Assembly: GCA_030390025.1 (NCBI GenBank)
Contig: CM059432.1
Coordinates: forward strand, 13,454,001-13,518,000
From: Squalus acanthias
Lineage: Eukaryota
Direction of reading: 5' to 3'
Length of the DNA: 64,000 nt
The notes beneath the pieces are model-generated. The model did not search any database. It saw only the letters and a list, made by a program, of their open reading frames with translations, and had not been told where the DNA came from. The number at the start of each line of letters is the position of its first letter. Position 1 is the first letter of the stretch. Position numbers and translations under genes: made by a program. Shown in pieces: positions 27,201 to 60,590 of this stretch.

Positions 27201-30200
27201 ACCTTGAGGTATGTGTTGAAGGAAAGGATTTTTAAATAAGTGCCACATTGACAACTTGGTAACCAAGTAGCAAGTCGTGCTTGAGTTCAATTTACCAAAG
27301 TCATATATATTGCTCAAATCCAGGTGCTCAGTGAGATTGGTAGTTCCCTCTCTCGGCACCTAATGGAGTACCTTGCTAAATCAAACTGCATCATATTGAA
27401 GCAAGAAAGAATTGTCTTCAGCAGCCAGAGGAGCATCAGTGTGGGCAGGCAGTTAATATCCAAGTGGATGAAATTGGGCTGATCCTGTGGCACTCGGTGA
27501 TACTGTCAGGAGTGATACTGTCACTCCAGCCTCAAACAATCCCTGTCCCGAGTCCCAATGGGCGACAAGCTGATCCTCCTTGGCGACTTTAACGCCAGAG
27601 TTGGAAAGGACACAGACCTCTGGGGAGGTGTGATTGGCAGAGAGGGGGTAGGGAAAGCCAACTCCAATGGTACCCTCCTGACGAAATGCTTAGAACATGG
27701 CCTTGTCATAACCAACACCTTGTTCCGTCAGAGAGACAAGTACAAGGCTTCATGGCAGCACCCTCTCCAAGCATTGGCATCTGCTGGACTATGTCATCGT
27801 TCGAGCGAGGGACCGCAAGAATGTCCGCATCACCCGCGCCATGACAGGAGCAGACGACTGCTGGACAGACCACCGCCTAATCCGCTCTGTCATCTCCATC
27901 AATGTAGCCCCAAGACAGCGGCGGCAACAGAAACAATGCCGCAGGAAAATCAACACTGGAGCACTCAAAGACCCCGCTAAGAGAGCCCTATTCAGCCTGC
28001 ACCTCACAAACAACCTGACGACTCCCAGTGATGCAGAGACACAGAGTGTCCACAGCGCCTGGTCTGCACTCATGGCCTCCATAATCAGCACCTGTGAAGA
28101 GACGCTCGGTCACTCGACCAGGAAACACCAAGACTGGTTCGACGAGAACGACCAGGAGATTCAGGAGCTAATGAGCCGCAAGCGCAAGGCATTCCTGATC
28201 TGGAAACAGCAACACAACTTGAGAGCAAGAAAGCAGCTCTACAGATGCCTGAAGGCCGAGGTCCAACAAAAAACTCTCAACCTAAAGAACAGGTGGTGGG
28301 TGGAGAAAGCGCAGGAGATCCAGCAGCTAGCCGACAACCACGACGTGCGTGGATTCTTTAGTGCAGTCAAGACCATCTACGGCCCAAGCACCCAAGGCCC
28401 TACCCTACTGCAGGCCAAGAACGGAGAGGTACTCATCAAGGACAGAGAGGCAGTCAGTGCCCGCTGGAAGGAGCACTTCGAAGATCTCCTTAACCGAGAC
28501 TATCTTCGACGCGAGTGTCCTCAACTCCATCTCGCAGCATGCTACCCACCACCACCTCAGCACAACCCCAGCCCAGCAAGAGGTTGAAAAGGCCATCCGA
28601 CAACTGAAGAACAATAAGGCCTTGAGCAGATGGAATCCCTGCAGAGGCACTAAAGCATAGCTGAGAAGCACTACTGGCGCGAATTCATGAACTCATTTCT
28701 CTTATCTGGAAGGAGGAGAGCATGCCAGGGGATCTCGGACGCCGTAATTGTGACCATCTTCAAGAAAGGTGATGAGTCAGATTGCCACAGGGAAAGTCAT
28801 CGCAAGAATCCTCCTCAGTCGCCTTCTCCCAGTGGCTGAAGAGCTCCTCCCAGAGTCGCAATGCGGATTCCGCCCACTAAGGGGCACAATGGACATGATC
28901 TTCACCGCACGTCAGTTACAAGAGAAATGCAGGGAACAGCACCAACCGCTGTACATGGCCGCCTTTGACCTCACAAAGGCCTTCGACACTGTCAACCGTG
29001 AGGGATTATGGAGTGTCCTCCTCCACTTCGGCTGCCCTCAAGTTTGTCACCATCCTCTGCCTGCTTCACGACAACATGCAAGCCGTGATCCTGACCAACG
29101 GTTCCACCACAGACCCAATTCACGTACGGACTGGGGTCAAGCAAGGCTGTGTCATCGCACCAACGCTCTTCTCGATCTTCCTTGCTGCAATCCTCCATCT
29201 CGCCCTCAGTAAGCTCCCTGCTGGAATGGAGCTAATTTACAGAACAAGCGGGAAACTGTTCAACCTCTCACCTCCAGTCCAGATCCAACATCGTCCCATC
29301 CTCTGTCGTCGAATTACAGTATGCAGACGACGCTTGCATCTGCGCAGACTCGGAGGTCGAACTCCAAACCATCAGCAACACCTTCACCGAATCGTACGAG
29401 AGCATAGGCCTTACACTAAACATCCGTAAGACAAAGGTCCTCTACCAACCTACCCCCCCCCTGATTATCACAATCCACGACAAAACCTTGGACAACGTGG
29501 ACCACTTTCCATACCTCGGCAGCCTACTATCAACAAGGGCAGATGTCGATGACCAAGTCGAACACCGCCTTCAGTGTGCCAGTGCAGCCTTCGGTCACCT
29601 GAGGGAGAGTGTGTTTGAAGACCAGGACCTCAAACCCGGAATCAAGCTTATGGTCTACAGAGCAGTAGTGATACCCGCCCTCCTGTATGCCTCAGACATG
29701 GACCATTTACAGCAGGCACCTCAGCACTGGAGAGGTACCACCAACGCTGCCTCCGCAAGATCCTGCAAATCCATTGGCAGGATAGGTGCACCAACGTCTG
29801 TGTTCTCACTCGGGCCAACATCCCGCTCATCGAAGCTTTGGCCACGCTCGATCAGCTCCGATGGACGGATCACATCGTCTGCATGCCCGATACGCGACTC
29901 CCAAAACAAGCTCTCTACTCTGAGCTCCGACACGGCAAGAGAGCCCCAGGTGGGCAGAGAAAACTATTCAAGGACACCCTCAAAGCCTCCTTGGAAAAAG
30001 TGCAACATCCCTGGCCCAATACCGCACAAAGTGGAGGAGAAGCATCCGGGAAGGCACCGAACACCTCGAGTCTCTTCACCGGGAGCAAGCGCAAGGAGCG
30101 CATGTCACCCAAGCTCCCCACCCACCGTCTGCCCCACCTGTGACAGAGACTGTAGGTCCCGCATTGGACTCATCAGTCACCTGAGAACTCATTTTTAATG

Positions 30201-45200: not shown

Positions 45201-48200
45201 CTGGAAATTGGAAATAAAAACAGAAAATGCTGGAAATACTCAGCAGGTCAGGCAGCATCTGTGGTGAGAGAAACAGAGTTAACGTTGCCAGTCGATGACC
45301 TGACCAGCTGTTAATTGGCCTGTCTTGGTAATTTGTATACACCTCGTATCTAATGTGTTGATTGTAGTTGTGAAACGAGCGTGATTAAAAACACGTTCAG
45401 TCAGGTGATAAAACATTGCGAGAGCTAGCATTGTCTAAGCTCAGAAATTTAACATGCAGGAGGGTAGTTTGGAATCATAGAATGGTTACAGCACGGAAGA
45501 AGGCCATCGAGCCCGTGCCAGCTCTCTGCAAGAGCACTTCAGCTAGTCCCACTCCCCCGCCCTTTCCCTGTAGCCCTACAAATTTTTTTCTTTCATGTAC
45601 TTATCCAACTTCCTTTTGAAAGCTGTGATTGAGTCTGCTTTCACTACCCTTTCAGGCAGTGCATTCCAGATCCTAACCACTCGCTGCATAAAAAAGTTTT
45701 TTCTTGTCACCTTTGGTTCTTTTGCCAATCACATTAAATCTGTGTCCTCTGGTTCTCGACCCCTCTGCTAATGGGAACAGTTTCGCTCTCTCTACTCTGT
45801 CCAGACCCCTCATGATTTTGAACACCTCTATCAAATCTCCTCTCAACCTCCTCTGCTCTAAGGAGAACAACTCCAGCTTCTCCGGTCTATCCACGTAACT
45901 GAATTCCCTCATCCCTGGAATCATTCTTGTAATTCTTTTCTGCACCCTCTCTAAGGCCTTCACATCCTTCCGAAAGTGCGGTGCCCAGAATTGGACACTA
46001 TACTGCAGTTGAGGCCGAACCAGCGTTTTATACAGGTGGTTTATCATTTCCATGCTTTTGTACTCTATACCCCTATTCATGAAGCCCAGGATCCCGTAAG
46101 CTTTTTTAACTGCTTTCTCAGCCTGCCCTGCCACCTTCAACGATTTGTGCATATGTACCCCCAGGACACTCTGTTCATGCACCCCCTTTAGTATTGTACC
46201 CTTTAGTTTATATTTCCTCTCCTCATTCTTTCTACCATAATGTATGACTTCGCATTTTTCTGCGTTAAATTTCATCTGCCATGTGTCCGCCCATTCCACC
46301 AGCCTGTCTATGTCCTCTTGAAGTCTATCACGATCCTCCTCACTGTTCACTATACTTCCAATTTTTGTGTCATCTGCAAATTTTGAAATTGTGCCCTGTA
46401 CACCCACATCCAAGTCATCAATATATATCAAGAAAAGCAGTGGTCCTAGAACCTACCCCTGGGGAACACCACTATACCTTCCTCCAGTCCGAAAAACAAC
46501 CGTTCACTGCTACTGTTTCCTGCACTGAGCCAGTTTCGTATCCATGCCGCCACTGTCCCTTTTATTCCATGGGTTTCAACTTTGCTGGCAAGCCTATTAT
46601 GTGGTACTTTGTCGAACCCTCTCTGTTACCTCATCAAAAAAACTTGATCAAGTTGGTTAAACATGATTTGCCTTTAACAGATCTGTGTTGGCTTTCCTTA
46701 ATTAATCCACACTTGTCCAAGTCCCTGATTATTGTTTCTAAAAGCTTCCCCACTACTGAGATTAAACTGACTGGCCTGTAGTTGCTGGGTTTATCTTTAC
46801 ACACTTTTTTGAACAAGGGTGTAACATTTGCAGTTCTCCAGTCCTCTGGCACCACCCCTGTTTCTAAGGAGGATTAGAAGATTATGGCCAGTACCTCCAC
46901 GATTTCTTCTTTCACTTCCCTCTACATCCTAGGATGCATCCTATCCGGTCCTGGTGACTTATCTACTTTAAGTACAGCCAACCTTTCTAGTGCCTCAACT
47001 TTATCAATTTTTATCCCATCCAGTATCTCCTCTACCTCCTCCTTCACTATGTCTATGGCAGCATCTTTTTCCTTGGTGAAGACAGATGCAAAGTACTCAT
47101 TTAGTACCTCAGCCATGCCCTCTGCCTCCATGCGTAGGTCTTTTTGGTCCCTAATTGGCCTCTTCCCCCTTCTTCCCCCCCCCCTCCTTTTACTACCCGT
47201 TTACTATGTATATGTCTATATAAGACTTTTGGATTACCTTTTATATGTTAGCTGCCATTCTATTCTCATACCCTCTCTTTGCCCCTCTTCTTTTTTCACT
47301 TCTCTTATAAATGTGAAGTTATCCACTTTGGTAGAAAAAACAGAAAGGCAGAGTATTTCCTAAATGGTGAAAGATTGGGGAATGCAGATGCTCAAAGGGA
47401 CCTGGGTGTCCTTGTACATGAGTCACTGAAAGTGAATCTGCAGGTGCAGCAAGCCATTAGGAAGGCAAATGGTATGCTGGCCTTCATTACAAGAGGATTT
47501 TGAGTACAGGAGTAAAGAAGTCTTACTCCAATTATATAGGGCCTTGGTGAGACCACACCTGGAGTACTGTGTACAATTTTGGTCTCCTTACCTAAGGAAG
47601 GATACACTTGCCATAGAGGGAGTGCCACGAAGGTTCACGAGATTGATTCCTGGGATGGCGGGACTGTCGTATGAGAAGAGATTGAGTAAACTAGGCCTGT
47701 ATTCTCTTGAATTCAGAAGAATGAGAGGGGATCTCATTGAAGCATACAAAATTATTACAGGGCTTGATAGGATGGATGCTGGGAGAATGTTTCCCTTGGC
47801 TGGGGAGTCTAGAACCAGGGGTCCACAGCCTCAAGATAAAGGGTAGGGCATTCAGGACTGAGATGAGAAGAAATTTCTTCACACAGAGGGTGGTGAATCT
47901 TTGGAATTCTCTACCCCAGAGGGCTGTGGAGGCTCAGTCATTGGGTATATTCAAAACAGAAGTCGATAGATTTCTGACTAGTAAGGGTATCAAGGGATAT
48001 GGCGATAGGGCCGGTGAATGGAGTTGAGGCAGAAGATCAGCCATGATCTCATTGAATGGCGGAGCAGGCTTGAAGGGCCTAATGGCCTACTCCTCCTATT
48101 TCTTATGTTCTTATGAACTTTCTATATTCCGCCTGATTCTCAGATGTATTCTCGACCTGTCATACGCCCCCATTTTCTGCTTCATCTTACTCTCTCTTTC

Positions 48201-51200
48201 GTTATCCAGGGAGCTCTGACTTTAGTTGCCCTACCTTTCCCCCTAGTGGGAATGTACTGTGACTGTACCTGGACTATTTCCTCTTTAAAGGCAGCCCATT
48301 GTTCCACTACAGTTTTCCATGCCAATCTTTGATTCCAATTTACCCGGTTCAGATCCATTCTCATCCCACTTAAATTGGCCTTCCTCCAATTAAGTATTTT
48401 TACTCTCGATTGCTCCCTGTCCTTTTCCATAGCTAATCTAAACCTTATGATATGATCACTGTTCCCTAAATGTTCTCCTACTGACACTTGCTCCACTTGA
48501 CCTACCTCATTTCCCAGGACCAGATCCAGCAATGCCTCCTTCCTTGTTGGGACGGAAACATACTGATCCAGAAAGTTCTCCTGAACACACTTCAGAAATT
48601 CTTCCCCCTCTCTGCCCTTTATACTATTACTATCCCAGTCTATATTGGGATAGTTGAAGTCCCCCATTATCACTACTCTATAGTTCTTGCATCTCTCTGT
48701 AATTTCTCTGCAAATTTGCCCCTCCATCGTTTTCCTGCTAGTTGGTGGCCTGTAGAATACACCTAGTACAGGAAACTCTTTCGTATCCGGCACCTATGGG
48801 ACCGGGATGGTGTCGGTTGATTAAAAATTCCAGATAACGGAGAGGTATACCTACCAAGGCAATTTATATATCGGCCGACCTCAGACCAGAAGAAGGGACA
48901 TGGAGTGACAATGGCCCAAGGTACGAGAGCCCTGGTCACCTGGCCGCAGGTGCAGGAGCCCCGGCCACAGGTGCAGGAGCCCCGATCACCAATATACAGT
49001 ATACGGAAGCCTCAAAACCTACTCCTGAATTTTGCCGGTTATTAGAGAATTCCGGATAATTAGGTGCCGTTTAAACAAGAGTTTCCTGTAGTGTAATGGC
49101 ACCTCTATTATTTCTTAACTCTAGCCATATAGATTCTGTCCTTGACTCCTCCAGGACATCCTCTCTCTCCAGCACTAACATTCTCCTTAATCAATACTGC
49201 CACACCACCTCCTATCTTTCCTGAACACCCTATATCCAGGATTATTTAATACGCAATGCTGCCCTTTTTTGAGCCAGGTCTCCGTTATTGCCACATCATA
49301 TTCCCATGTGGCTATTTGCGCCTGCAGCTCACCAACCTTGTTTACTATGCTAATCTAAACCATAGGAATTGTTTTGTTTTCAAGTAAGATAACCCACTGA
49401 TGTAGGGAATTGTAGTATATTCCTTATTTTGTGTTGAAGTGAAGAAAAGCTGTTTGTATGATGTGAATCCAATCTTAATTGTTCACTTGCTGTGCAGTAA
49501 AACAGCCGAATGATTCGTAACTGGCCTCATCTCAGTGTTTTCTTGTCTGCCTTCAAAGAAATTGAAGATGCACATGTGCATGTCATATCCAGTTCAGATC
49601 ATCCTGAGTTCTGCTAGAATAGCTGTGCAGCATTTGTCATCCTCCAGGCCTTTAGCATAATTCCAATTGTATAGAATTTTGGGGAAAATCATGCTTTGTG
49701 CCTCTGCTAGCTCCTCCCCTGCTGGCTTTTTTTTAAATCGCATTAACTTTTGTAATACAATTGAATATTTATCTCCAGTGGTGGCTTATCCACATCCCCT
49801 TCAGTCGCTCCTATTGTCCCCCTCTGTAAAACTAAGGAAAAATACTTACGTAACACCTCGACCTTTTCTCACTGAAGTGCAAGGTGGCACCTTTCACCTC
49901 CAGGTGGTCCCACCACTTTTTTTGACTGTCCTTTTACTGACGAGACGTTAAACAAAGGCCCCGTCTGACTGTTCAGGTGGATGTAAAGAATCTCCCCGCC
50001 CTATCCAGTGATGAGTAGGGAGGTTTCCCAGTGTGATGCCCAACATTCTTCCCTGAACCACCAACACCAAAAATGATCTCATCAGTCTTTAATGTTTGTC
50101 GGGTCTTGATCTGCGCAAATTAGCTGCTGCATTTGCCTACATAAAAGCAGTAACTACAGTTCAACAAAAAAAGTCCATTGATTGTGAAGTGTTTTGGGCA
50201 ATCCTGAAGGCGTGATAAGGCACTATCTGAGTGCAAGTTCTTATAATGTACTTCCAATATGGTTTATCCCTTTACTATGAAAGGGTGGTAGAGACAGAAA
50301 CCCTCATCGTATTCAAAAAGTACTTGGCTGTGCACTTGAAGTGCCGTAACCTATAAAGCTACGGACCAAGAGCTGGAAAGTGGGATTAGGCTGGATAGCT
50401 CTTTAGCACCGACACGATGGGCCGAATGGCTTCCTTCTGTGCCGTAAATTTTGATGATTTCTTAATTTGACCCCAACAGACTGAGCATATCCATCATTTT
50501 AAAACATTCCTGTCTGACATTGTAATTTAATAATGCACCTTTCATCTCTCTTTTTAACTGCTCTCCTGAATTTTATAGCAGAGAATATTTAGTTTCTAAT
50601 CTTGGCCCAGCTGAAGCAAGGTTTTTGTCTCGAACTTGTCCTACTGCCGTAGCAGCCTGCAAGTTTCCTTTTTTACACCATGATGTGTCTAATCCGCTTC
50701 TCCCTTACTGGCCAAGTACATAGCACTGGGAGTAATTCCATGAAAATTAAGTCTTTGGTATTGCAATTTACATTGATTTGATTCTATAAAATGAATAAAA
50801 TATCAAAGTTCAAGCTGCTCCACCCTTCGAGTGGCATATTGGTACTCCCTGAGTGAGTTTCTCATTTTGTTCATGATATCAGTCAAAGGTGATGGCTGGG
50901 TGTTTCCCCTAGTGAGAGGTGAATCTGTTATGGGTGAGGCACCCCTTTAGCTGATCATGCATCTCCTTGTGGTCACAGAACAGCTTTGGCGGAGAGCATA
51001 TTGTCTGTTTGCACAACCTGTTGGTCAAGGCGTGGGTCATGGTAGAGGGGAAAAACATTTCGAAATGGATCTCATTGAAGAATGAATGTGGCCTAAAACA
51101 ATATGCAATTGTATTCTCATTTTCTCTTTCTCTCCCCTTGCTGTCTTTCTCCTGTTAGTTCTCTCTCTCCCTCGTATGTCACTCGCGTGCCATTCATTCT

Positions 51201-54200
51201 TTGCTCACGTTTTATTGCCGACATTCATTTTCTTCTTGCTTCCTCTCTCATCTCTCCCCTCCCCACTAGATTAGCATGCAGTGGATTAAGTGTTTTGCAT
51301 AACTAGTGTAGGTTTTGACTCTTTCCAATCTTTTTATTTTAGGCAACTGATTTTGCTGTTAGAACTGTACAACCCCAAAGATGTGTATGACTACCTACGA
51401 CCCATATCACTCAGTCTCTGTGCCGATAAGGTTTCTTCGGTCCGATGGATTGCCTACCGACTGGTAAGCTTAACAATTGCTGATGGGAATAACAGAGGGT
51501 CTCCTTGGCAATGCAGTGAGTAAATGCACTTTCCTCGTGTGCACACAGGCTGGGAAGGCACCAGGTTTTATTCCCGGTCTCTGCTGAGCGCAGTGATTCA
51601 TGTTGGCGAGGGTTCGTGTGCGAGCATGAAACGAAGACGGAATCGGACCCAGCAGTGGTGATTCCCCCATAGAATCAGAGAAATTTACGGCACAGAAGGA
51701 GGCCATTCGGCCCATCGTGTCTGCGCCAGCCGAAAGAGAGATCCACCCTAATCCCACTTTCCAGCTCTTGGTCCGTAGCCTTGTAGGTTACAGCACTTCA
51801 AGTGCATATCCAAGTACTTTTTAAATGTGAAGAGGGTTTCTGCCTTCACCACCCTTTCAGGCTGAGTTCCAGACCCCCACAACCCCCTGGGTGAAAAAAG
51901 TTGTCCTCAACTCCCCTCGAATCACAGAATCACAGAATCAGAATCACAGAATCACCACAGTGCAGATAGAGGCCATTTCGGCCCATCGAGCCTGCACCGA
52001 CACATCCCACCCTACCCCCGTAACCCCACGTATTTAATCCCCCCTAACACTAAGGGTCAATTTATCATGGCCAAATCAACCTAACCCGCACATCTTTGGA
52101 CTGTGGGAGGAAACCGGAGCACCCGGAGGAAACCCACACAGACACGGGGAGAGTGTGCAAACTCCACACAGACAGTCACCCGAGGCCGGATTCGAACCCG
52201 GGTCCCTGGCGCTGTGAGGCAACAGTGCCAACCACTATGCCACCGTGTTGCCTCCTTCTACCAATTACTTTAAATCTATGACCCCTGCTTATGACCTCTG
52301 CTAAGGGAAATAGGTCCTTCCTGTCCACTCTATTGAGGCCCCTCATAATTTTATACACCTCAATTAAGTCTCCCCTCAGCCTCCTCTGTTCCAAAGAAAA
52401 CAACCCCAGCCTCTCCAATCTTTCCTCATCGCTAAAATTCTCCAGCCCAGGCAACATCCTCGTAAATCTCCTCTCTACCCTCCCTAGTGCAATCGTATCT
52501 TTCCTGTAATGGAGCACTCGCTGTTTAGACTCTCACAGGAAGAGTGGCCACCTGAATGATGCTGTAGAGCAGCCAGTGGAACCACGTTCTAGTATGTGGA
52601 AAAAGAAAGGCCTTGCACTTGTATAGTGCCTGGTTGTGACCTCGGGATGACGTTTTCGTTATTATGTAGACAAACACTGCTACCATTTGCACACAGCTAG
52701 ATCCCACAAACAGTAACGGTGACTGCCCAGAAATGTTTTGGTTTTGGTAGTATCAGTTGAGGTAAAAACGTTAACCAGGACTCCAAAAGAATTTGCTGCT
52801 CCTTTTTTGAATAGTGCCATGGGATCTTTATGTCCATCAGAACAGCCAGTAACAGCCTCAGTTTAACATCTCATCCAAAAGATTGCATCTCTGATAATGC
52901 TGCACTCACTCAGTATTGCACTGAAGTGTCAGCCTAGTTTATGTGCTCAAGTGTTGGACCAGGGTTTGAACTCACAACCCTCTGACTCTGAGGTAAGTGC
53001 TGCCAACTGAGACTAACTCGAGGGGCAGAAATGAAGGGAGGGATAGAGCAATAAATAAGTAATTTGCCCTGCTGTGAAACCGTTACATTTGTTGCACAGT
53101 TGGAAGGTTTTAGAGTGTCGAGGCTGCCTGAATCTCAAATGTACCAATTGTACTTACTGCTAGTTTAAGCAGTGCATTACCCAGTGGCTAGACGCCTAAT
53201 AGACGCAAAATCTCTCGTACTGAGAAATGGAAACCGAATCTCTGCAGTAAATATGCATCACTCTCTGGGTGGGGGCCGCCTCCTCTCCCCACCGCCGCCA
53301 CCTCACCAATGCTCCCTAGTTTCCAGGGAACCTGCGCAGCCGGCTTTTCAATACAAAAACCACGCGTGCGGGGTATTTTGAATGGCCCATGTCGCCCCTT
53401 AAAGGGGCTGCGCGGCGCCAAACACAATTAGAGGGAACATTGCTCCTCACCCAGCCGCCTCGTCTAGTGTGTTTGCAACCCCATGGCTTTAGAAAACGTT
53501 TGAAAAATATTTGCTTCTTGCAAGAAAAGTGACACTAATAATTGAGTATACCTGTGTTCTTTGCAGGTGGGTGAGATGATTAGAAAATTCTATGCAGCTT
53601 CAACTCCCGCATTAGCAGTGGACTTTATTAACGAGCTTGTTGATAAGTTTTGCCATTGTGCAAAATGGTCAGGTCGTCAAACCTTTGTCTTTGTCTGTCA
53701 GGTAAGAGACTCCAGAAGCGACCTACATAGTACTGTTACTGTAAATTGAGCCCCACCCTAATTGCCTGCTATTTCTCTTATCTGTGTGTGTATGGCATTT
53801 GCAGTGCAGCCTACACAATTATTTGTAATTACTGTATAAATATACAGTTGAGATTTTGCCCTTGTATTCATAGCATTTTGCAGCACAGAAGGATGACATT
53901 TGGCCCATCATGCCTGTGCAGAATCTTTGAAAATGCTATCCAGTTAGTATTGGGAGCTTACACAAAGCTAGTTTCAAATGTGAGCAGAGTGTCACTATAA
54001 AGATTTTCTAAAATCCTCCTGTTACTGAAACCTGGGAGTACCATTTTCCAGGTACAAGGAGTGTTTTCTGTAACTTACAGGGCTACCCACACTGGTTGAG
54101 CATGTATGAGAGGGGTAAGTGCCCCCAAGTGCTGTTGTAAAATTATAATTTGGTGCTATTTCCTATAGAACTAGAAAGCTTCCAGCTGTTAATTGTCAGT

Positions 54201-57200
54201 TTTGCTTTGTGCACACAAACATTGCATATTAAAGGATCCATTTTTCTACATATAATTCTCTTTTTAAATACAGGCTGTGATTGAAGATGATTATATCCCT
54301 ATAGAGCAGTTTGCTGAGCACTTGATGCCGCACTTGCTACAGTTGGCATCTGATCCTGTTCCAAACGTCAGAGTGTTACTAGCAAAAACTTTAAGACAAA
54401 CCCTATTGGAAAAAGGTGAGGTCTTTTGGTGTCTGTTTCTATGCCAGTAGCATCAGTATTCTCACTAGTTGCATTTCTCTCTTTTTTCAAATGGAAAATT
54501 TTATTCGGAATTCTTGCTTTGGTATTAGAAACACTTGAGGTTTACCTGAACATTATCATCTTGATGGATTAATCGTGATGTGTCAGCCGTGGCTCAGTTG
54601 GTAGCACCCTTGCTTCGGCGTCAGAAGGTTGTGGGTTCAAATCCCACTCCAGAGACTTGAGCGCACAAATCTAGGCTGACACTCCAGTGGAGTGCTGCAC
54701 TGTCGGAGGTGCCGTCTTTCGGATGCGACCTTCAACAGAGGGTCCCGTCTGCGCTCTCAGGTGGACATAAAAGATCCTATGGCACTATTTCGAAGAAGAG
54801 CAGGGTAGTTAACCCCAGTGTCTGAGCCAATGTTTATCCCTCAATCCATATCAATAAAACAGATTATCGTATTGCTGTTTGTGGGAGCTTGCTGTCTGCA
54901 AATTGGCTGCCAAGTTTCCTACATTACAACAGTGACTACACTTCAAAAAGTACTTCATTGGCTGTAAAGCGTTTTGGGACGTCCGGTGGTCGTGAAAGGT
55001 GCGATATAAATGCAAGTCTTTTTTCTTAATTTGCTTTTGCATTTTGGTAACCACGAATGATCAGCCTCAAACGTTGTCTATTTTTGTCAAATTTTGTCCC
55101 CTCTTGCTACTCCTTCCAAAAAATAATTCTGATAAATAAATCCATCTCAATAGACACTGAGCTTGGATGGAATGACAGTGTTAATAAGAACATGGAGCAG
55201 GCCATTCGAGCCTACTCCGCCATTCAATGAGATCATGGCTGATCTTCTGCCTCAACTCCGTTCACCGGCCCTATCGCCATATCCCTTGATGCCCTTACTA
55301 GTCAGAAATCTATCGACTTCTGTTTTGAATATACCCAATGACAGCCTCCACAGCCCTCTGGGGTAGAGAATTCCAAAGATTCACCACCCTCTGAAGAAAT
55401 TTCTTCTCACCTCTGTCCTGAATGGCCTACCCTTTATCCTGAGGCTGTGGCCCCTGGTTCTAGACTCCCCAGCCAAGGGAAACATTCTCCCAGCATCCAT
55501 CCTATCAAGCCCTGTAATAATTTTATATGCTTCAATGAGATCCCCTCTCATTCTTCTGAATTCAAGAGAATACAGGCCTAGTTTACTCAATCTCTTCTCA
55601 TACGACAGTCCCGCCATCCCAGGAATCAATCTCGTGAACCTTCGTTGCACTCCTACTATGGCAAGTATATCCTTCCTTAGGTAAGGAGACCAAAATTGTA
55701 CACAGTACTCCAGGTGTGGTCTCACCAAGGCCCTATATAATTGGAGTAAGACTTCTTTACTCCTGTACTCAAAATCCTCTTGTAATGAAGGCCAGCATAC
55801 CATTTGCCTTCCTAATGGCTTGCTGCACCTGCAGATTCACTTTCAGTGACTCATGTACAAGGACACCCAGGTCCCTTTGAGCATCTGCATTCCCCAATCT
55901 TTCTGCCTTTTGTTTTTTCTACCAAAGTGGATAACTTCACATTTATCCACATTATATTCCATCTGCCAGGTTCTCGCCCACTCACTGAGCCTGTCGAGAT
56001 CCCCTTGAAGCCTCTTCACATCCTCATCGCAACTGACGCTGCCACCTAGCTTTGTCTCATCAGCAAATTTGGAAATGTTACATTTAGTCCCCCTCATCCA
56101 AATCATTGAAATAGATTGTGAATAGCTGGGGCCCAAGCACCGATCCTTGCGGTACCCCACTAGTCACAGCCTGCCATCCTGAAAAAGACCCTGTTGTGGA
56201 GTATTTTAAATCAACACTCGACACAAGGTTTTAGATCGTTATTCAAATGGTCTTTATTACACTGGTGGGGAGACGATCTCTACTGGCACACCAGGCGACT
56301 TCTCCGCTGTTACAAATTTTAAGCAATCTTTTATACACTTAATCATACAAACTCAACCTCGTGCACAATCCCGTTACACTCTTTTAATTGGCCTACGGCC
56401 CGCGTGCACAGTTGCTGATTGGCTAATTCCCTATCTCGCGTCACACAACCGTTCACCTATATTTATTGTCACATGATCTTTATGACATGACCTGTTATAA
56501 TTTTGTAACCTTTAGTAAAACCACATGTCTGCATTTCTGTCTCGCTGTGCCCTGTGGTTTTACTTATCTCTAGGTTTCATAGTTTGTGATTAATCATAGA
56601 TGGTGCTTCTGAGCTAATTTCATCTAATCTTGAAAAGCATCAAGACCTTGTGGTCAGTATGTCTGAGCTGTCTCCGCCGGTCTCTGTCTCAACCGTTTCT
56701 AGTGTGCAAGCTGCATTGTTAACCCCTTAATTCCTGAAGGAAGCCGATGTCCCACTTCAGACCCGTTTATCCCTACTCTTTGTTTTCTGTCTGTTAACCA
56801 ATTCTCAATCTATGCTAGTATATTACCCCCAATTCCATGTGCCATAATTTTGTTCACCAACCTCTTGTGTGGGACCTTATCGAAGGCCTTCTGAAAATCC
56901 AAATACACCACATCTACCGGTTCCCCTTTGTCTACTCCACCAGTTACATCCTCAAAGAACTCCAATAGGTTTGTCAAACAGGACTTCCCTTTCATAAATC
57001 CATGTTGACTCTGCCCAATCTAAGTGCCCAGTTATTGCCTCCTTTATAATAGATTCCAGCATTTTCCTAACTACTGATGTGAGGCTAACAGGACTGTAGT
57101 TCCCTGTTTTCTCTCTCCCTCCTTTCTTAAATAGCAGGGTTACATTTGCTATTCTCCAATCTGCAGGAATCGTTCCAGAATCTATAGAATTTTGGAAGAT

Positions 57201-57846
57201 GACAACCAATGTGTTCACTATCCCAATGGCCACCTCTTTCAAAACCCTAGGATGTAGGTCATCCGGTCCTTGGGATTTATTGACTTTTAGTCCCATTAAT
57301 TTTACTAGTACTGTTTTTTTACTAATCATAATCTCTAAGTTCCTCATTCTTGCCACACCCTTGGTTTTCTCGTATTTCTGGGTGGTTTTTTGTGTCTTCC
57401 TCCGTGAAGACAGAAACCAAGTATTTATTTACTTTCTCTGCCATTTCCTCATTTCCCCATTATAAATTCTCCTGTCTCTGACTGTAAAGGACCTACATTT
57501 ACCTTTGCCAGTCTTTTCCTTTTCACATACCTATAGAAGCTTTTACAATCTGTTTTTATATTTTTTGCTAGTTTGTGGTCATATTCCATTTTCCCTTTAT
57601 CAATTTCTTGGTCCCCCTTTGCTGATTTCTAAAAAGATCCCAATCCTCAGGCTGACTGCTTTTTCTCCTTATTTTCTTGCAGAATACTTTGTGAACTCGG
57701 GCAGCTCTCACCAGGAAGCCATAGAGCAAATCACTCTGGCACTGCAGGCTGATCAAGACCGGGATGTCCGATACTTTGCCAGCATATACCCCAGTAGCAC
57801 AAAGCTCGGTGACGATGCCATGAGCACTGCTTCTTCCACTTATTAA
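3104..57846 (+). CDS. PPP4R1: Serine/threonine-protein phosphatase 4 regulatory subunit 1, 5'-partial multi-exon gene: join(3104-3250,5922-6029,6121-6186,7674-7832,10472-10614,15431-16002,25402-25580,[27051-27155],30804-30890,37147-37332,38924-39085,40301-40401,51343-51463,53567-53701,54274-54415,57683-57846)
   Basis: Exons join with GT-AG boundaries and matching phases into one open frame (2577 nt with the optional exon, 858 aa plus stop). Peptides match recalled vertebrate PP4R1, e.g. [62 protein letters not shown] and C-terminal [10 protein letters not shown]. Confidence 0.97.
5922..6029 (+). CDS. PPP4R1: PPP4R1 coding exon ([36 protein letters not shown])
   Basis: Pyrimidine tract plus tgtag acceptor, gttagt donor, 108 nt, phase 0-0. 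Confidence 0.96.
6121..6186 (+). CDS. PPP4R1: PPP4R1 coding exon ([22 protein letters not shown])
   Basis: ttcttccag acceptor after a 91-nt intron, gtaggt donor, 66 nt. Confidence 0.94.
7674..7832 (+). CDS. PPP4R1: PPP4R1 coding exon ([23 protein letters not shown]...ISDPSRW)
   Basis: T-rich tract plus tgcag acceptor, gtgagt donor, 159 nt; lies within ORF 7623..7868. Confidence 0.97.
7905..7985. repeat. Near-perfect inverted repeat (37-bp arms, 7-nt loop)
   Basis: tattgctaccgtaattctctgtagtgaactgcacata / tatgtgcagttcactacagagaattatagtagcaata; 35 of 37 positions are Watson-Crick. Confidence 0.95.
8005..8795 (+). mobile_element. Composite insertion ending in a CR1 3' tail plus A-run, flanked by a 17-bp direct repeat
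   Basis: aaatctaatttatgtgg at 7988-8004 and 8796-8812; CR1-type tail gggccgaatggcctgtttctgtgctgtat at about 8750-8785. Confidence 0.7.
10472..10614 (+). CDS. PPP4R1: PPP4R1 coding exon ([17 protein letters not shown]...ENNN)
   Basis: ttgcag acceptor, gtatgc donor, 143 nt ending in phase 2, matching the next exon. Confidence 0.95.
10678..11005 (-). mobile_element. SINE sharing its 3' tail with the LINE at 21195-24205; second copy at 18296-18681
   Basis: gggatgtgggcattgctagcaaagc...agagggcagtt...ggagtcacac...ttccctaaaggacat..gtgaacca, also seen at 18296-18681. Confidence 0.75.
11705..11952. mobile_element. Tc1/mariner (Tigger-like) MITE
   Basis: TIR CAGGAAACTC...GAGTTTCCTG, same family as 48769-49088, with internal short tandem repeats. 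Confidence 0.85.
12272..12625 (+). mobile_element. HE1/V-SINE-like SINE, 5'-truncated, nested in a minus-strand SacSINE1-like copy (about 12200-12860)
   Basis: V-domain gtttgcacattctccccgtgtctgcgtgggtttcctccgggtgctccggtttcctcccacagtcc and CR1-type tail gggccgaatggcctactcctgctcct. Confidence 0.85.
13181..14300 (-). mobile_element. CR1 LINE, 5'-truncated
   Basis: ORF 13431..13808 encodes [18 protein letters not shown]...[10 protein letters not shown]...RTRGH, typical of the CR1 ORF2 C-terminus. Confidence 0.92.
15431..16002 (+). CDS. PPP4R1: PPP4R1 large exon: acidic/Ser-rich linker plus [12 protein letters not shown] motif, ending [11 protein letters not shown]
   Basis: catcttag acceptor (phase 2), g|gtacag donor (phase 1), 572 nt; ORF 15417..16055. 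Confidence 0.93.
17018..18236 (-). mobile_element. CR1 LINE, 5'-truncated
   Basis: ORFs 17124..17918 give RT C-terminal peptides ([30 protein letters not shown]). Confidence 0.92.
18296..18681 (-). mobile_element. SINE, same family as 10678-11005
   Basis: Collinear with the 10678-11005 copy; 3' tail matches the LINE tail at about 22990-23060. Confidence 0.8.
18777..18864 (+). mobile_element. Penelope-like element terminal fragment carrying a minimal hammerhead ribozyme motif
   Basis: 12-bp TSD cttttgaatagt (18765-18776 and 18865-18876); ctgacgaaggggcagcagctccgaaagcttgtg followed by aataaa. Confidence 0.8.
18779..18816 (+). ncRNA. Minimal type I hammerhead ribozyme motif
   Basis: Stem I TCAC/GTGA, core CTGACGA, stem II GGGGC-AGCA-GCTCC, GAAA, palindromic AAGCTT in place of stem III. 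Confidence 0.65.
18891..20119 (-). mobile_element. CR1 LINE, 5'-truncated with internal deletions
   Basis: [21 protein letters not shown] (ORF 19868..20065); same subfamily as 31303-33040 and about 43700-44140. Confidence 0.9.
21195..24205 (+). mobile_element. Decayed CR1-group LINE distinct from classic vertebrate CR1. Body 21195-22462, 3' tail resumes at 24069-24205 after nested insertions
   Basis: Peptides [23 protein letters not shown] and AGIPQRS. Sequence breaks at cctaacagc (22462) and continues collinearly at about 24075. Confidence 0.8.
22985..24068 (-). mobile_element. Younger copy of the same CR1-group LINE, nested antisense in the older copy; a further short copy at about 22470-22610
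   Basis: ORFs 23263..23998 give [29 protein letters not shown] and [15 protein letters not shown]. Confidence 0.88.
24320..24990 (-). mobile_element. L2-clade LINE 3' fragment, decayed
   Basis: [10 protein letters not shown]...[12 protein letters not shown] peptide; homologous to 436-1519. Confidence 0.8.
25402..25580 (+). CDS. PPP4R1: PPP4R1 coding exon ([15 protein letters not shown]...EISATLE)
   Basis: ccaacag acceptor in phase 1 completes DPDVK-A-QVDVL; gtaggc donor; 179 nt. Confidence 0.94.
25915..26130. mobile_element. Penelope-derived inverted-repeat remnant; related fragment at about 45175-45305 (-)
   Basis: Arms aacagaaaatgctgga... / ...tttccaacatttttctgtttttatt match the cagaaaatgctggaaatactcagcaggtcaggcagcatctg motif at 45220-45260. 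Confidence 0.6.
27051..27155 (+). CDS. PPP4R1: Candidate additional symmetric PPP4R1 exon ([35 protein letters not shown])
   Basis: tttccctgtacttgcag acceptor, acg|gtgagg donor, 105 nt, stop-free, phase 0-0 like both neighbours. No recalled human counterpart. Confidence 0.6.
27524..30243 (+). mobile_element. RTE-clade LINE, 5'-truncated, multiply frameshifted
   Basis: APE endonuclease ([20 protein letters not shown]), RT ([37 protein letters not shown] at about 29320), C-terminal [21 protein letters not shown] and a very short 3' UTR. Confidence 0.92.
30804..30890 (+). CDS. PPP4R1: PPP4R1 coding exon ([29 protein letters not shown])
   Basis: cttccctcaacag acceptor, cag|gtaatt donor, 87 nt. 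The KSKIQ end leads into DVVPQ as in recalled orthologues (RTKVQ-DVVPQ). Confidence 0.9.
31303..33040 (-). mobile_element. CR1 LINE, 5'-truncated, interrupted by a MITE
   Basis: ORF 31413..31883 is the CR1 ORF2 C-terminus; sequence resumes at 32897. Confidence 0.92.
32005..32896. mobile_element. PIF/Harbinger-like non-autonomous DNA transposon
   Basis: TIRs gggggaaaaatt / aatttctacccc (10 of 12 match), 3-bp TSD caa (32002-32004 and 32897-32899), GC-rich subterminal repeats. Removal restores the CR1. Confidence 0.75.
37147..37332 (+). CDS. PPP4R1: PPP4R1 coding exon ([19 protein letters not shown]...LASDMQ)
   Basis: tttcag acceptor, gtatgc donor, 186 nt. Confidence 0.97.
37624..37791. mobile_element. 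hAT-type MITE nested in a SINE
   Basis: TIR caatgttccc...gggaacattg and perfect 8-bp TSD cccagctg (37616-37623 and 37792-37799). Confidence 0.9.
38113..38515 (+). mobile_element. LF-SINE-like ancient SINE, degenerate
   Basis: tRNA-like head tggcgcagtgag, tgtacctg motif and tail caatctctagcattgatatctttcacg...aaattca resemble the recalled LF-SINE consensus. Confidence 0.45.
38924..39085 (+). CDS. PPP4R1: PPP4R1 coding exon ([19 protein letters not shown]...LYDFLK)
   Basis: tttttccag acceptor, gtaatt donor, 162 nt. Confidence 0.97.
39140..40010 (+). mobile_element. LF-SINE-like ancient SINE split by another SINE (about 39356-39770)
   Basis: Ordered motifs atggctg...tgaaattagtt...ccacagtacaaaac...caatctcagtcagaggcca, then tgaaactact...gttgtacctg, are collinear with the recalled LF-SINE. 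Confidence 0.55.
40301..40401 (+). CDS. PPP4R1: PPP4R1 coding exon ([33 protein letters not shown])
   Basis: ccccacag acceptor, ga|gtatgt donor (phase 2), 101 nt. Confidence 0.96.
40710..41122 (-). mobile_element. CR1 LINE 3' fragment
   Basis: [11 protein letters not shown]...[10 protein letters not shown] peptide (ORF 40665..40850). Confidence 0.85.
41640..44695. mobile_element. Cluster of decayed CR1 fragments on both strands, with younger minus-strand CR1 pieces at about 43700-44500
   Basis: Degenerate CR1 ORF2 nucleotide motifs and [14 protein letters not shown] (ORF 44225..44446). Internal boundaries uncertain. Confidence 0.7.
47307..48115 (+). mobile_element. Young CR1 3' fragment nested in the older CR1
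   Basis: ORFs 47469..48027 and ttcttatg tail repeats; nearly identical to the reverse complement of 55184-55950. Confidence 0.92.
48769..49088. mobile_element. Tc1/mariner (Tigger-like) MITE
   Basis: TA|CAGGAAACTCTT...AAGAGTTTCCTG|TA: 12-bp TIR and TA TSD, inserted into the CR1 endonuclease region. Confidence 0.92.
49880..50240 (+). mobile_element. SacSINE1/DeuSINE-like copy, partial
   Basis: gagacgttaaacaaaggccccgtctgactgttcaggtggatgtaaaga, collinear with 54581-55025. Confidence 0.75.
51343..51463 (+). CDS. PPP4R1: PPP4R1 coding exon ([20 protein letters not shown]...WIAYRL)
   Basis: ttttag acceptor (phase 2, GA+G = Glu), gtaagc donor, 121 nt. Confidence 0.96.
51668..52511 (-). mobile_element. 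CR1 3' fragment with nested HE1-like SINE
   Basis: ORF 52176..52517 is the CR1 C-terminus; same subfamily as 17018-18236 and the + tail at about 50280-50460. Confidence 0.9.
51919..52252 (-). mobile_element. HE1/V-SINE-like SINE, near full length
   Basis: On the minus strand: tRNA-like head (ggttcgaatcc B-box), V-domain and (ttctgtga)n-type tail. Confidence 0.88.
52600..53015 (-). mobile_element. SacSINE1/DeuSINE-like copy
   Basis: Reverse complement is collinear with 54581-55025 (gaatagtgccatgggatcttt; tgtcagcctag; tttgaactcacaacc). Confidence 0.8.
53307..53442. mobile_element. hAT-type MITE related to 37624-37791
   Basis: caatgctccct...agagggaacattg termini; 8-bp flanks cacctcac / ctcctcac (7 of 8 match). 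Confidence 0.75.
53567..53701 (+). CDS. PPP4R1: PPP4R1 coding exon ([14 protein letters not shown]...[12 protein letters not shown])
   Basis: tttgcag acceptor, gtaaga donor, 135 nt. Confidence 0.96.
54274..54415 (+). CDS. PPP4R1: PPP4R1 coding exon ([47 protein letters not shown])
   Basis: atacag acceptor, g|gtgagg donor (phase 1), 142 nt; HEAT-type D-P-V-P-N-V-R motif. Confidence 0.96.
54581..55025 (+). mobile_element. SacSINE1-like DeuSINE, full length
   Basis: Pol III A box tggctcagttgg, B box ggttcaaatcc, Deu-domain gtgctgcactgtcggaggtgccgtctttcggatg...ggcactatttcgaagaagagcaggg, and L2-like tail ataaatgcaagtc. Confidence 0.88.
55184..57666 (-). mobile_element. Young CR1 LINE, 5'-truncated, filling most of the last PPP4R1 intron; contains a solo LTR
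   Basis: ORF2 peptides: [61 protein letters not shown]. Confidence 0.95.
56192..56759 (-). mobile_element. Solo LTR (568 bp) of an LTR retrotransposon or endogenous retrovirus
   Basis: TG...CA termini; 5-bp TSD gaccc (56187-56191 and 56760-56764). On the minus strand, two CCAAT boxes, TATAAAA and AATAAA occur in U3-R order. Confidence 0.88.
57683..57846 (+). CDS. PPP4R1: PPP4R1 terminal coding exon ([15 protein letters not shown]...[10 protein letters not shown])
   Basis: ttttcttgcag acceptor in phase 1, TAA at 57844-57846. Confidence 0.96.
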
Positions 57847-60590
57847 AATGGGCTGACGTTCTTCGCACCATTGGACTGATCAAACTTTAAGTCACTGATG
57901 AGTGCTTTAAATGTGTGTGTCAGCTGGAATGTACTGGGTGAGTGCTCCAGAATACGGCGAGATATCTGTTCTGTAGACTGAACGATGGGGTTTTGCGAAT
58001 GTGGTGACCTGCCTAGTGGCCCTTGATTACACTGAGATTCAGTTTAGACCATTACTAGTCGTGTGGCCGTGACTTTTGTTTTTCGTATTTTGACCACTGA
58101 AAATTTCTCAGAGGATCTTACCACCGAAGCCTTAAACTCCTGTATTCTAAAACTAACAAACTTGAACACCTGGAGCCGCCTTAATGGAGGAGGGATTATC
58201 CATTTCGGACCTAATCATTCCTTCCAGAAAAAGTTAAAAAGAATGTTACTGACAATTCTTGTCTATAAGCAACAATTAACTGCATTTGCAAAGAATAAGA
58301 ACTAGTAAAGTTAACGTGTATTTATCTTAATGCTGTACAAGAAGTTTCATGTACTGATTCAGAAAAGTTCTTTTTCAACTGTGCTAGTTATGTAAAGGGG
58401 TTTTACCTAAAATGGATTAGTTATACCTCATTTAGTTTGAACATGGACAGTGGAGTTGCTTTGGGTCATTGAAGCTACCCCATTCATACTACAGCAAATT
58501 TCAGTCTAGCGGGTATGCAAAATGGCTGCCACTGTTCCGCTTTGACTCCCTTCTTTACCCAACTCATTCATCCCTTCCTGTGGGTTTTGTTCTACCTACC
58601 TTGGCTGTTGCACAGGAATTGACAGAAGAAATATGGAAGGTAAAGGAAAAAGAAAAACACACATACGACATGCTCGTGTTTTTTTTTTTTTACAAATTCC
58701 TCATAACTACTCAGAGGCGATAATCTGCTGTGTAAGGGGTAGTGGTAGCTGTTTTTTTATAGTTGTGTGCGCCCTGCCAAATTGATCTAGATTTCATACC
58801 TCAGGCTGAGATGGATCTGATTAAATTCAGATGTATGGAATTTTGCACTGTTTGGTGTGAAAATCAGGTGTCAGATCTATCTAAATTTACATACAAATCT
58901 GACTCCCCTTGTAAATCAAACAAGGTATCTCACTCACTCTACATATAAACAGGATTATCCACCATATTGCTTGGGATGGGGGGGGGCGGGGAAAGAGAGG
59001 CTGGATAATTAGCATGGGACAGCTGGCCTTCAAAGATCTTTGTCATGTGAGGCCATTTTGATCACCTGACTTTCTACCATTTATAAGGCCTTGTTCTTCT
59101 GAGTTCACACTCCCACCATCATGTTCAAGCTGATGGTCTTTGTGCCTTAGTGGCAGCCTACCAAGGTCTGTCTCAGTTAACTTAGTTCTTTGACCGCTGG
59201 TCATTGTCTGTTCGGTTTTAAAGCCTGCAATGAATATCATGGATGGCTTCCAATAACTAGCATGTGTGGCACCTGTCTTCCATCATTGCATGTATGTCTT
59301 TTCACAGTTTCAGGCCTGTTTTAAATTCAACATAATTAAACCATCATATTGATTGAAAGGTTATCCTGGCTACAAGCTGTAGATGGGACGATAGATTCTC
59401 GTCAGACCGGGAAATTAGACCATTGGTTAAACAAGTTTCTGAAGAGAGAGTGGCAAATTATGCAGTGGATTTTGTCATTTTGAACTACTCCTTGGTGAAG
59501 TGGGAGCTGAATTCTACTTGTACAGTGGCCATCTCGAGCTATCATATGGCAGGTTCTCTAGCATCTACCTGAAGAATTGACATGTTTACCCCCCCCCCCC
59601 CCCCCCCCCCCCCAGCATTACTGTTATGACCTGAAAGTGTAATATGGTAAGTGATCTGGCATTGCTGTGCTCCAGATCAGCCTACAGTTGTAAGTCTTCA
59701 GAGTTCCACTGTCAGTACTGGCACTAGTGGTGTATTTCTGTTTGTGGAGGTTGGATATATAAAGACAAATGATGGATTACCTCTGGTCTCCCTTATTCTT
59801 TGGAAGAAGTTCAACCTCCACCTATAAATCTCCTACCTGGCCTACCCAGTCTCTCTCTTTCTTTAACCTCATGTTGATTATGCTGCTTAGTTTCTGTTTC
59901 TGGGTCTTGCCACATTTTAGTTAATGAAGTCTCCTTGCTGTCTCGGACAAACAGATCTCATTCCAGGCAATAGTTTTGTATGTATGGCAGAGCAGGGAGT
60001 GTTTACCTGGTTAACTCCACACCATTAACAATCTTATTTAGACTAGTTGACTTGCTTCCCCCCCCCCCCCCCCCCCTCCCCCTTTCCACCACCAAGATAA
60101 AATGAGAGATGATCCATTGCATATGTGGACTTTGGACTTTTTTCAGAAAATGAGGTGTTGCCTATGGCAGGTAATCTAATATTACATGCTGCAAAGTGCA
60201 GAAAAACGGTCAGATTTCTGTGTGAGTTTAAATGTGTGCAGTGGGAACTCTCTTAAGGGCTCAGGCTCAGCACTAACACTACAAAGTAGTCAAATGATTT
60301 TAAAGTACAGCACATTTCTGTGTTTGTTATGCAGAATTCTGCTGTGTCTGTTTCATGCTGGTCATGTCCTGCGGAGTAAGTTTGAATTGGAATAGCACAC
60401 TAGCTTTAAGTCTGAAAATTCAGGTATTTTAACTTTTTATCATGATCGGCTGAATGCTGCACCTTTTTTTATATGTACATATCTGTGAGCACTCTGAGTG
60501 CCCGTTGTTGATCATGTCATAAAAAGCAGTTGTGATACAAGTTGTTCTGTACTTGTCCAAATAAAAATAAATATGCAACTATATTTCTTC
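57847..60590 (+). other. PPP4R1: Putative PPP4R1 3' UTR (about 2.7 kb)
   Basis: Follows the stop codon, has no TE I can recognise (unlike the introns), and ends at tandem AATAAA. The end point is inferred. Confidence 0.6.
60560..60571 (+). terminator. Tandem polyadenylation signals AATAAA-AATAAA
   Basis: AATAAA at 60560-60565 and 60566-60571, TGTA at 60548-60551 upstream, T-rich sequence downstream. Confidence 0.7.

Follow-up and report, generated by a model that had tools for sequence, protein, structure and literature searches.

A CR1-type LINE as the likely source of the branch point of the last PPP4R1 exon in Squalus acanthias

In the 64,000-nucleotide stretch of Squalus acanthias DNA analysed here (the window), the branch point of the last exon of PPP4R1, an evolutionarily old housekeeping gene, is very likely derived from a LINE lying antisense in the last intron, since LINE sequence occupies the interval from -19 to -37, where about 90% of human branch points are found. 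The best explanation, and a probable one, is that U2 branching takes place at A57655 following arrival of the LINE, with the protein unchanged. A preliminary description had proposed the LINE as the source of the branch point; that proposal is sustained insofar as the usual zone is taken up by the LINE, an RNA-type contig uses the acceptor and A57655 scores best, and the exact nucleotide is a prediction. The features of the locus are as follows.

54274..54415, + strand: PPP4R1 penultimate exon (tblastn with shark PPP4R1 P0030, 48/48 identical; RNA-type contig piece 54271-54413)
54416-54417, + strand: donor GT of the PPP4R1 last intron
54416..57682, + strand: PPP4R1 last intron, 3267 nt, GT..AG, its two sides joined in X6 record 24
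54580..55025, + strand: high-copy SINE with a tRNA-like head, ends approximate (self-match 52796-53011; very high depth)
55026..55183, + strand: host intron, 158 nt, no repeat detected; contains A55175, the old branch site proposed earlier
55184..57666, - strand: CR1-type LINE, 5' part missing, antisense to PPP4R1 (tblastn with ORF2 proteins P0004 and P0154; sister-copy alignment)
56192..56759, - strand: solo LTR of 568 nt with TG..CA ends and a target duplication of 5 nt, nested in the LINE (LINE paralogues show joints 56185-56759)
57683..57846, + strand: PPP4R1 last exon, coding part to the stop, then 3' UTR (P0030 match; X6 record 24)
47307..48080, + strand: inverted sister copy of the LINE 3' part, with 14 mismatches over 748 aligned nt; it served for dating, and the branch site is outside its span

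The LINE and its boundary at the last acceptor

P0030 was matched by all 16 PPP4R1 exons in the window (tblastn), and the C-terminal end of the shark protein corresponds to the exon from 57683. The last acceptor AG is 57681-57682. It is used in mRNA: an RNA-type contig from the near-identical organism B (X6 record 24) joins 54413 to 57681 with 0 differences, which is equivalent to 54415/57683, and the depth over the last exon (32.7-33.2) equals the depth of this contig alone (33.2). This is one contig of one run, its RNA status is a guess, and its sample differs from that of X2 and was assumed to carry the LINE. None of the 24 runs listed, all of them sets of contigs, is on record as RNA. As contigs drop rare isoforms, the splice reading rests on the joints listed. 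In the spliced contig the two host exons are directly joined and LINE sequence is absent, which ruled out exonisation of the transposable element (TE) as the main outcome.

The LINE carries stops, frameshifts and deletions, has its 3' tail at about 55184, and compares with P0004 and P0154 at 56-76% over the aligned blocks. Pfam RVT_1 and Exo_endo_phos were found on P0004 and P0154, i.e., an AP-endonuclease and then a reverse transcriptase; the endonuclease part is absent from the LINE copy, and a Pfam scan of two window LINE fragments alone matched no family. The named protein matches are reverse transcriptase proteins of shark, ray, coelacanth and turtle that bear no clade labels. At the 3' end the sister copy has a short tandem tail and the intron copy a deleted form of it; such a short tandem (8-nt) tail with no poly(A) is what we take to be the mark of CR1. 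Together, the ORF2 architecture of the homologues and the tandem 3' tail would place the LINE in the CR1 clade, and the CR1 label is one that we presume, alongside the report on shark introns cited in the last section.

ORF2 homology is solid up to 57666, as the preliminary description had read it, and a weak tblastn extension goes on to 57675. An end at 57675 was ruled out, as a LINE-free contig of organism D aligns from 57669. A CR1 paralogue contig (X22 record 22) stops aligning at 57666 and runs on for 50 letters, and the orthologous LINE-free contigs align from 57669 (X17 record 8, organism D) and from 57660 (X22 record 23, organism F). Because of where these paralogue and LINE-free alignments end, the LINE/host boundary was placed at 57660-57668, with a host tail of 14-23 nt, most simply read as 16 nt. 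The earlier figure of about 16 nt lies within this range, and the other prospect raised with it, a CR1 end more than 40 nt upstream of the AG, does not. The segment 57660-57666, in the pyrimidine tract, may be microhomology between LINE and host.

The same junction is present in a genomic contig of organism B (X2 record 16; depth 9.6), which matches 57637-58050 with 0 differences; it includes 30-31 LINE letters, borderline where 31 letters are required for bridging, and the window may itself come from the X2 sample. Organisms D and F, which are more distant, have no LINE at this position. Upstream contigs of X2, X17 and X22 all stop at 54604-54609, in the SINE, which is apparently common to organisms B, D and F and which we take to be DeuSINE/SacSINE-like. 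For 55026-55183 no piece was among those listed for any run, B included, so that absence in D and F is uninformative there. No Rfam family reached its gathering score in 54400-59400. Since no repeat was detected within 200 nt at the other 15 of the 16 PPP4R1 acceptors (by self-similarity and ORF2 matches only), the proximity of the LINE to the last acceptor is the unusual part.

Splice signals in the LINE end and the site of branching

The signals near the acceptor are listed below.

57621..57626, + strand: second CURAY-type candidate in the LINE, A57625 at -58, with two AGs before the acceptor
57649..57650, + strand: LINE-derived AG at -34/-33; as an acceptor it would add 32 nt and an immediate stop
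57652-57656, + strand: CTGAC, predicted main branch site, LINE-derived, A57655 at -28; identical in X2 record 16
57657..57679, + strand: polypyrimidine tract, 20/23 pyrimidines, the LINE side contributing the first 10 nt; contains host A57671 (-12, yUnAy)

Reading of the positions confirmed the CTGAC with its A at -28 and no AG before the acceptor: the nearest AG upstream of the acceptor, 57649-57650, is itself upstream of A57655. The minus strand over CTGAC reads RKSSQPEDW, the peptide named earlier. Use of 57649-57650 as an acceptor was not seen among the contig joints listed. A57655 lies in a motif able to pair with U2 snRNA and inside the 19-37 nt zone, which contains just two A's: 57655, in a CURAY with a pairing score of 10, and 57649, which belongs to an AG and scores 7. 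It is also the top-scoring candidate at -18..-40, in a U2-pairing score built on the motif yUnAy/CURAY. In human, not shark, the interval 19-37 nt upstream takes in 90% of branch points, A makes up 78.4% of them, and CUGAC is the commonest predicted human B-box and is enriched in vertebrates (PMC4315302). Folding gave no stable structure that hides CTGAC (z +1.15; unpaired in the centroid). The preliminary description had overlooked that the LINE side also contributes 10 nt to the 23-nt pyrimidine tract.

The branch nucleotide, the order of events and their neutrality we infer as follows. In the lineage to which the window and organism B belong, an antisense CR1-type LINE would have come to end about 16 nt before the conserved acceptor, removing or displacing the native branch site but sparing the AG with the final 14-23 nt of the intron. 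CR1 in antisense orientation has many pyrimidines and few AGs, and the LINE end offers CUGAC at -28 and then a U-rich stretch that passes into the host tract. U2 would most likely branch at A57655, and scanning would reach the original AG to give the same protein. The allele may have been kept since splicing was preserved, a passive co-option by a survivor for which later selection would be unnecessary.

Chance would largely suffice to explain the motif at the LINE end. An AG-free CURAY at -18..-40 was found for 429 of 6277 antisense CR1 end-points (6.8%) vs 56 (0.9%) in the sense orientation, and an AG-free yUnAy for 1843 of 6277 (29.4%) vs 535 (8.5%), the end-point positions overlapping and hence not being independent. 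By itself the CTGAC motif is only modestly unusual.

It is unlikely, though the strongest of the competing readings of the site used, that the branch point is LINE-derived but not mainly A57655, the work being done by A57649, A57642/57643, A57625, a non-A nucleotide or several sites, with CTGAC dispensable. The score of A57625 equals that of A57655, but AGs 10 and 24 nt downstream of A57625 would compete as acceptors, and A57649 and A57642/57643 fit the consensus poorly. Several branch points occur in 32.4% of human exons, and 21.6% of human branch points are non-A (PMC4315302). A CURAY at -18..-40 is present at 2 of 16 PPP4R1 acceptors, and 6 of 16 have not even a yUnAy; because so few carry CURAY, motif score predicts branch use poorly in this gene.

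A host branch point is very unlikely, whether it be A57671 in the host tail or a site far off on the upstream side of the LINE. A57671 fits yUnAy, with a score of 8, in host sequence common to D and F, but its position at -12 falls outside the 19-37 nt zone reported for human (PMC4315302), while for a site upstream of the LINE 111 AGs intervene between 55184 and 57680. In addition, a branch point at -12 leaves U2AF little room. Last, the misassembly that had been raised earlier, or an inactive duplicate gene, is most improbable: the X2 contig has few LINE letters and a possible source-sample origin, as noted above, but it was separately assembled with the same junction, the spliced contig from another study matched both exons with 0 differences, and 16 of 16 exons match P0030.

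Origin of the juxtaposition and of the CTGAC motif

How the LINE came to lie next to the tract is a separate matter. The chances are nearly even that it inserted further upstream and that about 120-200 host bases, the old branch site among them, were then lost by a later microhomology-mediated deletion or by a deletion at the target site. Such a deletion may explain the juxtaposition because the contigs of the relatives suggest that this many host bases were lost: the D contig continues 388 nt upstream from 57669 and the F contig 303 nt upstream from 57660, vs about 190 nt expected for an intact empty site with both contigs stopping at the shared SINE, their end points being assumed. The F contig also aligns 7 nt into the T-rich LINE end, a target-site duplication of 5-10 nt was not found between 55140-55190 and 57655-57700, and in the alignment with the sister copy each of the 5 gaps is a deletion from the intron copy. 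For the ZfL2-2 element, long target-site alterations are reported as rare in wild-type cells (1/25; PMC2666801). On the other side, the run-ons of D and F are known by their length, from a listing of 8 pieces per run, the two differ by about 76 nt, and 5' microhomology is also frequent at plain LINE insertions (about 50% for ZfL2-2; PMC2666801). The preliminary description had placed the original branch site, possibly as aatgac or gttaat, near 55170-55185. That placement is unsupported, as the A's of gttaat overlap the LINE 3' tail, and the relatives' contigs hint that the old site was deleted rather than displaced.

The preliminary description had also suggested that CTGAC may be a later improving substitution, giving Lys as the usual residue; this is half supported. 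Lys is indeed the commonest residue at the codon (20 of 53 aligned ORF2 homologues), followed by Arg (15), and Gln, the residue here, occurs in 0 of 53; the count began from 188 proteins examined, of which 111 aligned at the Trp and 53 were kept (score >=45). One change from a Lys codon yields the observed motif. Even so, it is doubtful that a point change after insertion made CUGAC and then spread under selection because it restored splicing. Codons beside the Gln are atypical too, and in a 28-nt stretch the 5 differences from the family loose-end consensus are all shared with the sister copy. Because this 98%-identical copy shares them, departures from the family majority can be subfamily traits. 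Divergence since insertion is about 1-2% per site, and with Lys at the codon the site would already have been a yUnAy, provided that the Ser codon was identical.

The evidence on selected conservation of the LINE end is the Gln count, from proteins only, and the identity seen in organism B only. DNA copies covering 57640-57666 were sought in several collections: a metagenome pattern scan gave 0 matches and a peptide scan 0 of 147 stretches confirmed; genome contigs gave 0 of 58 and 0 of 390; viral contigs gave 0 of 17 confirmed by peptide and one pattern match (L001); and there were none in plasmids and no second copy in the window. The 40 rows listed from the contig comparison did not include the paralogue letter at 57654. 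The fullest selective account, in which a young LINE and a deletion erased the native branch site, CUGAC arose as a selected compensation and splicing depends on one LINE adenosine, is doubtful to the same degree as the point change.

Relation to known transposon-derived splice signals

TE-supplied branch points are already known, and PPP4R1 would be a candidate example of known co-option, not of a new mechanism. As here, exonised inverted Alu elements are antisense retroelements that give a branch point and a pyrimidine tract; there 154 branch points were lariat-mapped, whereas the PPP4R1 site is predicted, and there the exon and AG are new and Alu-derived, whereas in PPP4R1 the exon and AG are ancient and the upstream signals LINE-derived (PMC4315302). 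In OGDH intron 4a reporters, MIR insertions upstream of an authentic acceptor likewise shift branch-point use by adding or removing competitors, as mapped in MIR15 transcripts (PMC7969005); those are engineered human minigenes with a SINE in a distant-branch-point intron, in contrast to a natural allele with a LINE. The MIR/AluSp exon of BLOC1S2 has a TE-borne, lineage-specific branch point that is also a prediction, in a new alternative exon (PMC6822395). Polymorphic human Alu elements within 100 bp of exons likewise fall in the branch-point zone; splicing was altered by 5 of 23, while one that lay in the same region left it unaltered, but these lie near alternatively used exons and are described as disruptive or neutral rather than as branch-point suppliers (PMC6326789).

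Genome-wide statistics for mammals describe zones close to exons in which TEs are under-represented (PMC3088655), and a scarcity of young antisense L1 around constitutive exons (PMC6108849); in view of both, a young antisense LINE of 2.5 kb that lies about 16 nt away from an acceptor would be a rare survivor. Our literature search found no shark equivalent of these zone statistics and no described case of a natural TE-supplied branch point at an ancient exon. TE splice signals are usually described for TE-born exons or disease alleles, and the PPP4R1 locus looks like the opposite case, an old exon for which TE sequence seemingly took the place of a core splicing signal with the protein unchanged. 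If lariats confirm the site, it would be a clean natural example of branch-point turnover. Shark introns are reported to be CR1-rich (10.1101/443036), and in such genomes we would expect LINE ends within about 40 nt of acceptors to be strongly biased to the antisense orientation and to be enriched in AG-free yUnAy beyond the 29% background.

The last PPP4R1 intron and its LINE

On its + strand the window covers the 3' portion of PPP4R1, in which tblastn with the shark PPP4R1 protein P0030 located 16 exons. For the long exon the nearest named proteins are those of Pristiophorus (85%) and Heptranchias (83%), which points to a squalomorph shark as the most likely host. At 57718-57729 the last exon has ITLALQ, where most shark proteins retrieved have IAVALQ or similar, small lineage-specific changes within an otherwise conserved tail.

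Features of the last intron
54416-57682, + strand: last PPP4R1 intron, GT..AG, 3267 nt
about 55184 (short-repeat tail) to 57666, - strand: CR1-type LINE with stops, frameshifts and deletions
56192-56759, antisense to the gene: solo LTR interrupting the LINE, 568 nt

Around the candidate branch site the minus strand encodes RKSSQPEDW, which can be aligned to LINE ORF2 proteins bearing endonuclease and RT domains; on such ORF2 and tail features the element is provisionally assigned to CR1. A LINE this near an acceptor is locally unusual: at none of the other 15 of the 16 PPP4R1 acceptors was a repeat detected within 200 nt. The solo LTR, on its own strand, has two CCAAT motifs, a TATA-like box and AATAAA; its family is low-copy by depth, and at about 10 listed positions the window's letter is found in almost no contig, those of the near-identical organism B included. 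A very high-copy SINE (54580-55025) lies in the same intron and is apparently common to organism B and the more distant relatives D and F, and is therefore older than the acceptor-adjoining LINE. Two + strand AATAAA hexamers (54853 and 55135) would make intronic polyadenylation possible if splicing were slowed. Elsewhere in the window, an older CR1-type element (45673-49351, minus strand, endonuclease to past the RT) is split by a young copy at 47307-48080, and a long, presumably RTE-like LINE (27516-30198, plus strand) has several open stretches over endonuclease and RT, sense within a PPP4R1 intron.

Branch-point geometry

The preliminary description proposed that the LINE supplies the branch point of the last exon. 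CTGAC does lie at 57652-57656. This puts A57655 at -28 and leaves no AG to compete on the way to the acceptor, as the closest preceding AG (57649-57650) is 5' of this A. Human lariat mapping places 90% of branch points 19-37 nt upstream; 78.4% are A, and a third of exons have several (PMC4315302). That zone, a human statistic, maps to 57646-57664 on the LINE side, where the only A's are 57655, a CURAY match with pairing score 10, and 57649, which is part of an AG and scores 7. Beyond it, A57625 (-58, CURAY) has two AGs downstream, host A57671 (-12) is a yUnAy match, and a host branch site 5' of the LINE would have 111 AGs ahead of it. The pyrimidine tract, 23 nt long, has 10 nt on the LINE side as well, and RNA folding gave no notable fold in the region (z +1.15). 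From this geometry the branch point is very probably LINE-derived, and A57655 is the favoured candidate for the main site. The feature itself is real, and the core proposal, a prediction from geometry, is probably right. CURAY occurs at -18 to -40 in only 2 of the 16 acceptors, eight of which were picked by eye from AG lists, and 6 of 16 have no yUnAy; both counts, like the several branch points of many human exons, caution against over-reading the CTGAC motif. Use of AG 57650 as acceptor would give an immediate stop, and was not seen among the contig joints listed.

Public contigs and the history of the insertion

Four of 24 listed public runs were compared with the window, all as contigs. 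X2, presumably a DNA run of organism B, has a contig of depth 9.6 that is identical to the window over 57637-58050 (0 differences). A separate assembly thus places the LINE end, CTGAC and the exon side by side, albeit with only 30-31 LINE letters and possibly from the window's source sample. In X6, presumably an RNA run from another study of organism B, a single 5807-nt contig holds 54271-54413 and 57681-58050 with 0 differences, at adjacent record positions equivalent to a 54415/57683 splice. Depth across the last exon equals that of the spliced contig, in which rare isoforms would be dropped; carrier status of the animal is assumed.

The X17 contig (organism D) aligns over 57669-58044 and continues upstream for 388 letters that do not resemble the window, and that of X22 (organism F) aligns over 57660-58044 and continues upstream for 303 letters. 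Judged from these contigs, the LINE is absent at the acceptor-adjoining position in both relatives, and its boundary with host DNA lies within 57660-57668; in X22 the alignment of a LINE paralogue breaks off at 57666, its contig extending a further 50 letters. The low divergence of the sister copy at 47307-48080 (14 of 748 letters differ) suggests that the LINE inserted once the lineage had separated from D and F, although gene conversion between these inverted copies could lower their apparent age. These copies (47307-48080, +; 55199-55946, -) are 98% identical, about 7 kb apart, have a frameshift in common, and bracket three PPP4R1 exons (starts 51343, 53567 and 54274). Pairing in pre-mRNA could favour back-splicing, skipping or A-to-I editing; gene conversion is another possible outcome.

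There is reason to doubt the old branch site proposed at 55170-55185: gttaat has its A's within the overlap with the LINE tail, and A55175 would be at about -25 only given a clean insertion site. In B, D and F alike, contigs terminate about 25-30 nt into the upstream SINE (54604-54609), so a clean empty site predicts a run-on of about 190 letters, versus 388 (D) and about 312 (F) observed, both counted from 57669. If the D and F contigs reach only as far as the SINE, the window lineage would have lost 120-200 host bases and, with them, probably the old branch site. In their upstream flank, D and F show 11 differences from the window over about 358 letters. A later deletion bringing the LINE next to the acceptor is about as plausible as direct insertion, if a shade short of an even chance: a search found no TSD, the F contig aligns 7 nt into the T-rich LINE end, and each of the 5 gaps relative to the sister copy is a deletion in the acceptor-adjoining LINE. 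For ZfL2-2, microhomology is reported at about 50% of 5' junctions, and long target-site changes as rare (PMC2666801).

Precedents, a possible later change, and chance

The LINE at this acceptor would work like known TE-supplied branch points, and is not an exonisation. In exonised Alus, 154 TE-borne branch points were mapped (PMC4315302); others were predicted, in BLOC1S2 for an exon of MIR/Alu origin (PMC6822395) and in another case for an LTR pseudoexon (PMC7951965), and reporters with MIR insertions demonstrated further ones (PMC7969005). Of 23 loci with an Alu inserted close to an exon, 5 had altered splicing (PMC6326789). In the literature covered, mostly titles and abstracts with main texts in part, we found neither a natural LINE replacing an ancient exon's branch site nor the PPP4R1 locus; supplementary branch-point tables could contain similar cases. 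We would expect such overlaps to be present, unremarked, in repeat annotations.

The CTGAC had also been read as a possible later improving substitution. From a set of 188 proteins, 111 could be aligned at the Trp, of which 53 had a score of 45 or more; at the codon concerned these 53 include Lys (20), Arg (15) and no Gln. Gln is therefore atypical, in line with the preliminary description. The codons beside it are atypical too, and one 28-nt stretch has five differences from the family consensus, all common to the sister copy. That selection favoured the change seems unlikely. No DNA copies of the LINE covering the candidate branch site were found in metagenomes, genome contigs, viral contigs, plasmids or the window; a degenerate LINE pattern had a single match in a viral contig (L001:601-625), probably by chance.

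To gauge chance, every position in seven CR1-type stretches of the window was taken as a LINE end at -17. Among these overlapping, non-independent positions, the antisense orientation gave an AG-free CURAY at -18 to -40 for 429 of 6277 (6.8%), yUnAy for 1843 (29.4%), and CURAY plus a pyrimidine-rich end for 114 (1.8%); the sense counts were 56, 535 and 20. In a CR1-rich genome (10.1101/443036) from which harmful insertions near acceptors are removed (PMC3088655; PMC6108849), an insertion of this kind could have survived with no later adaptation.
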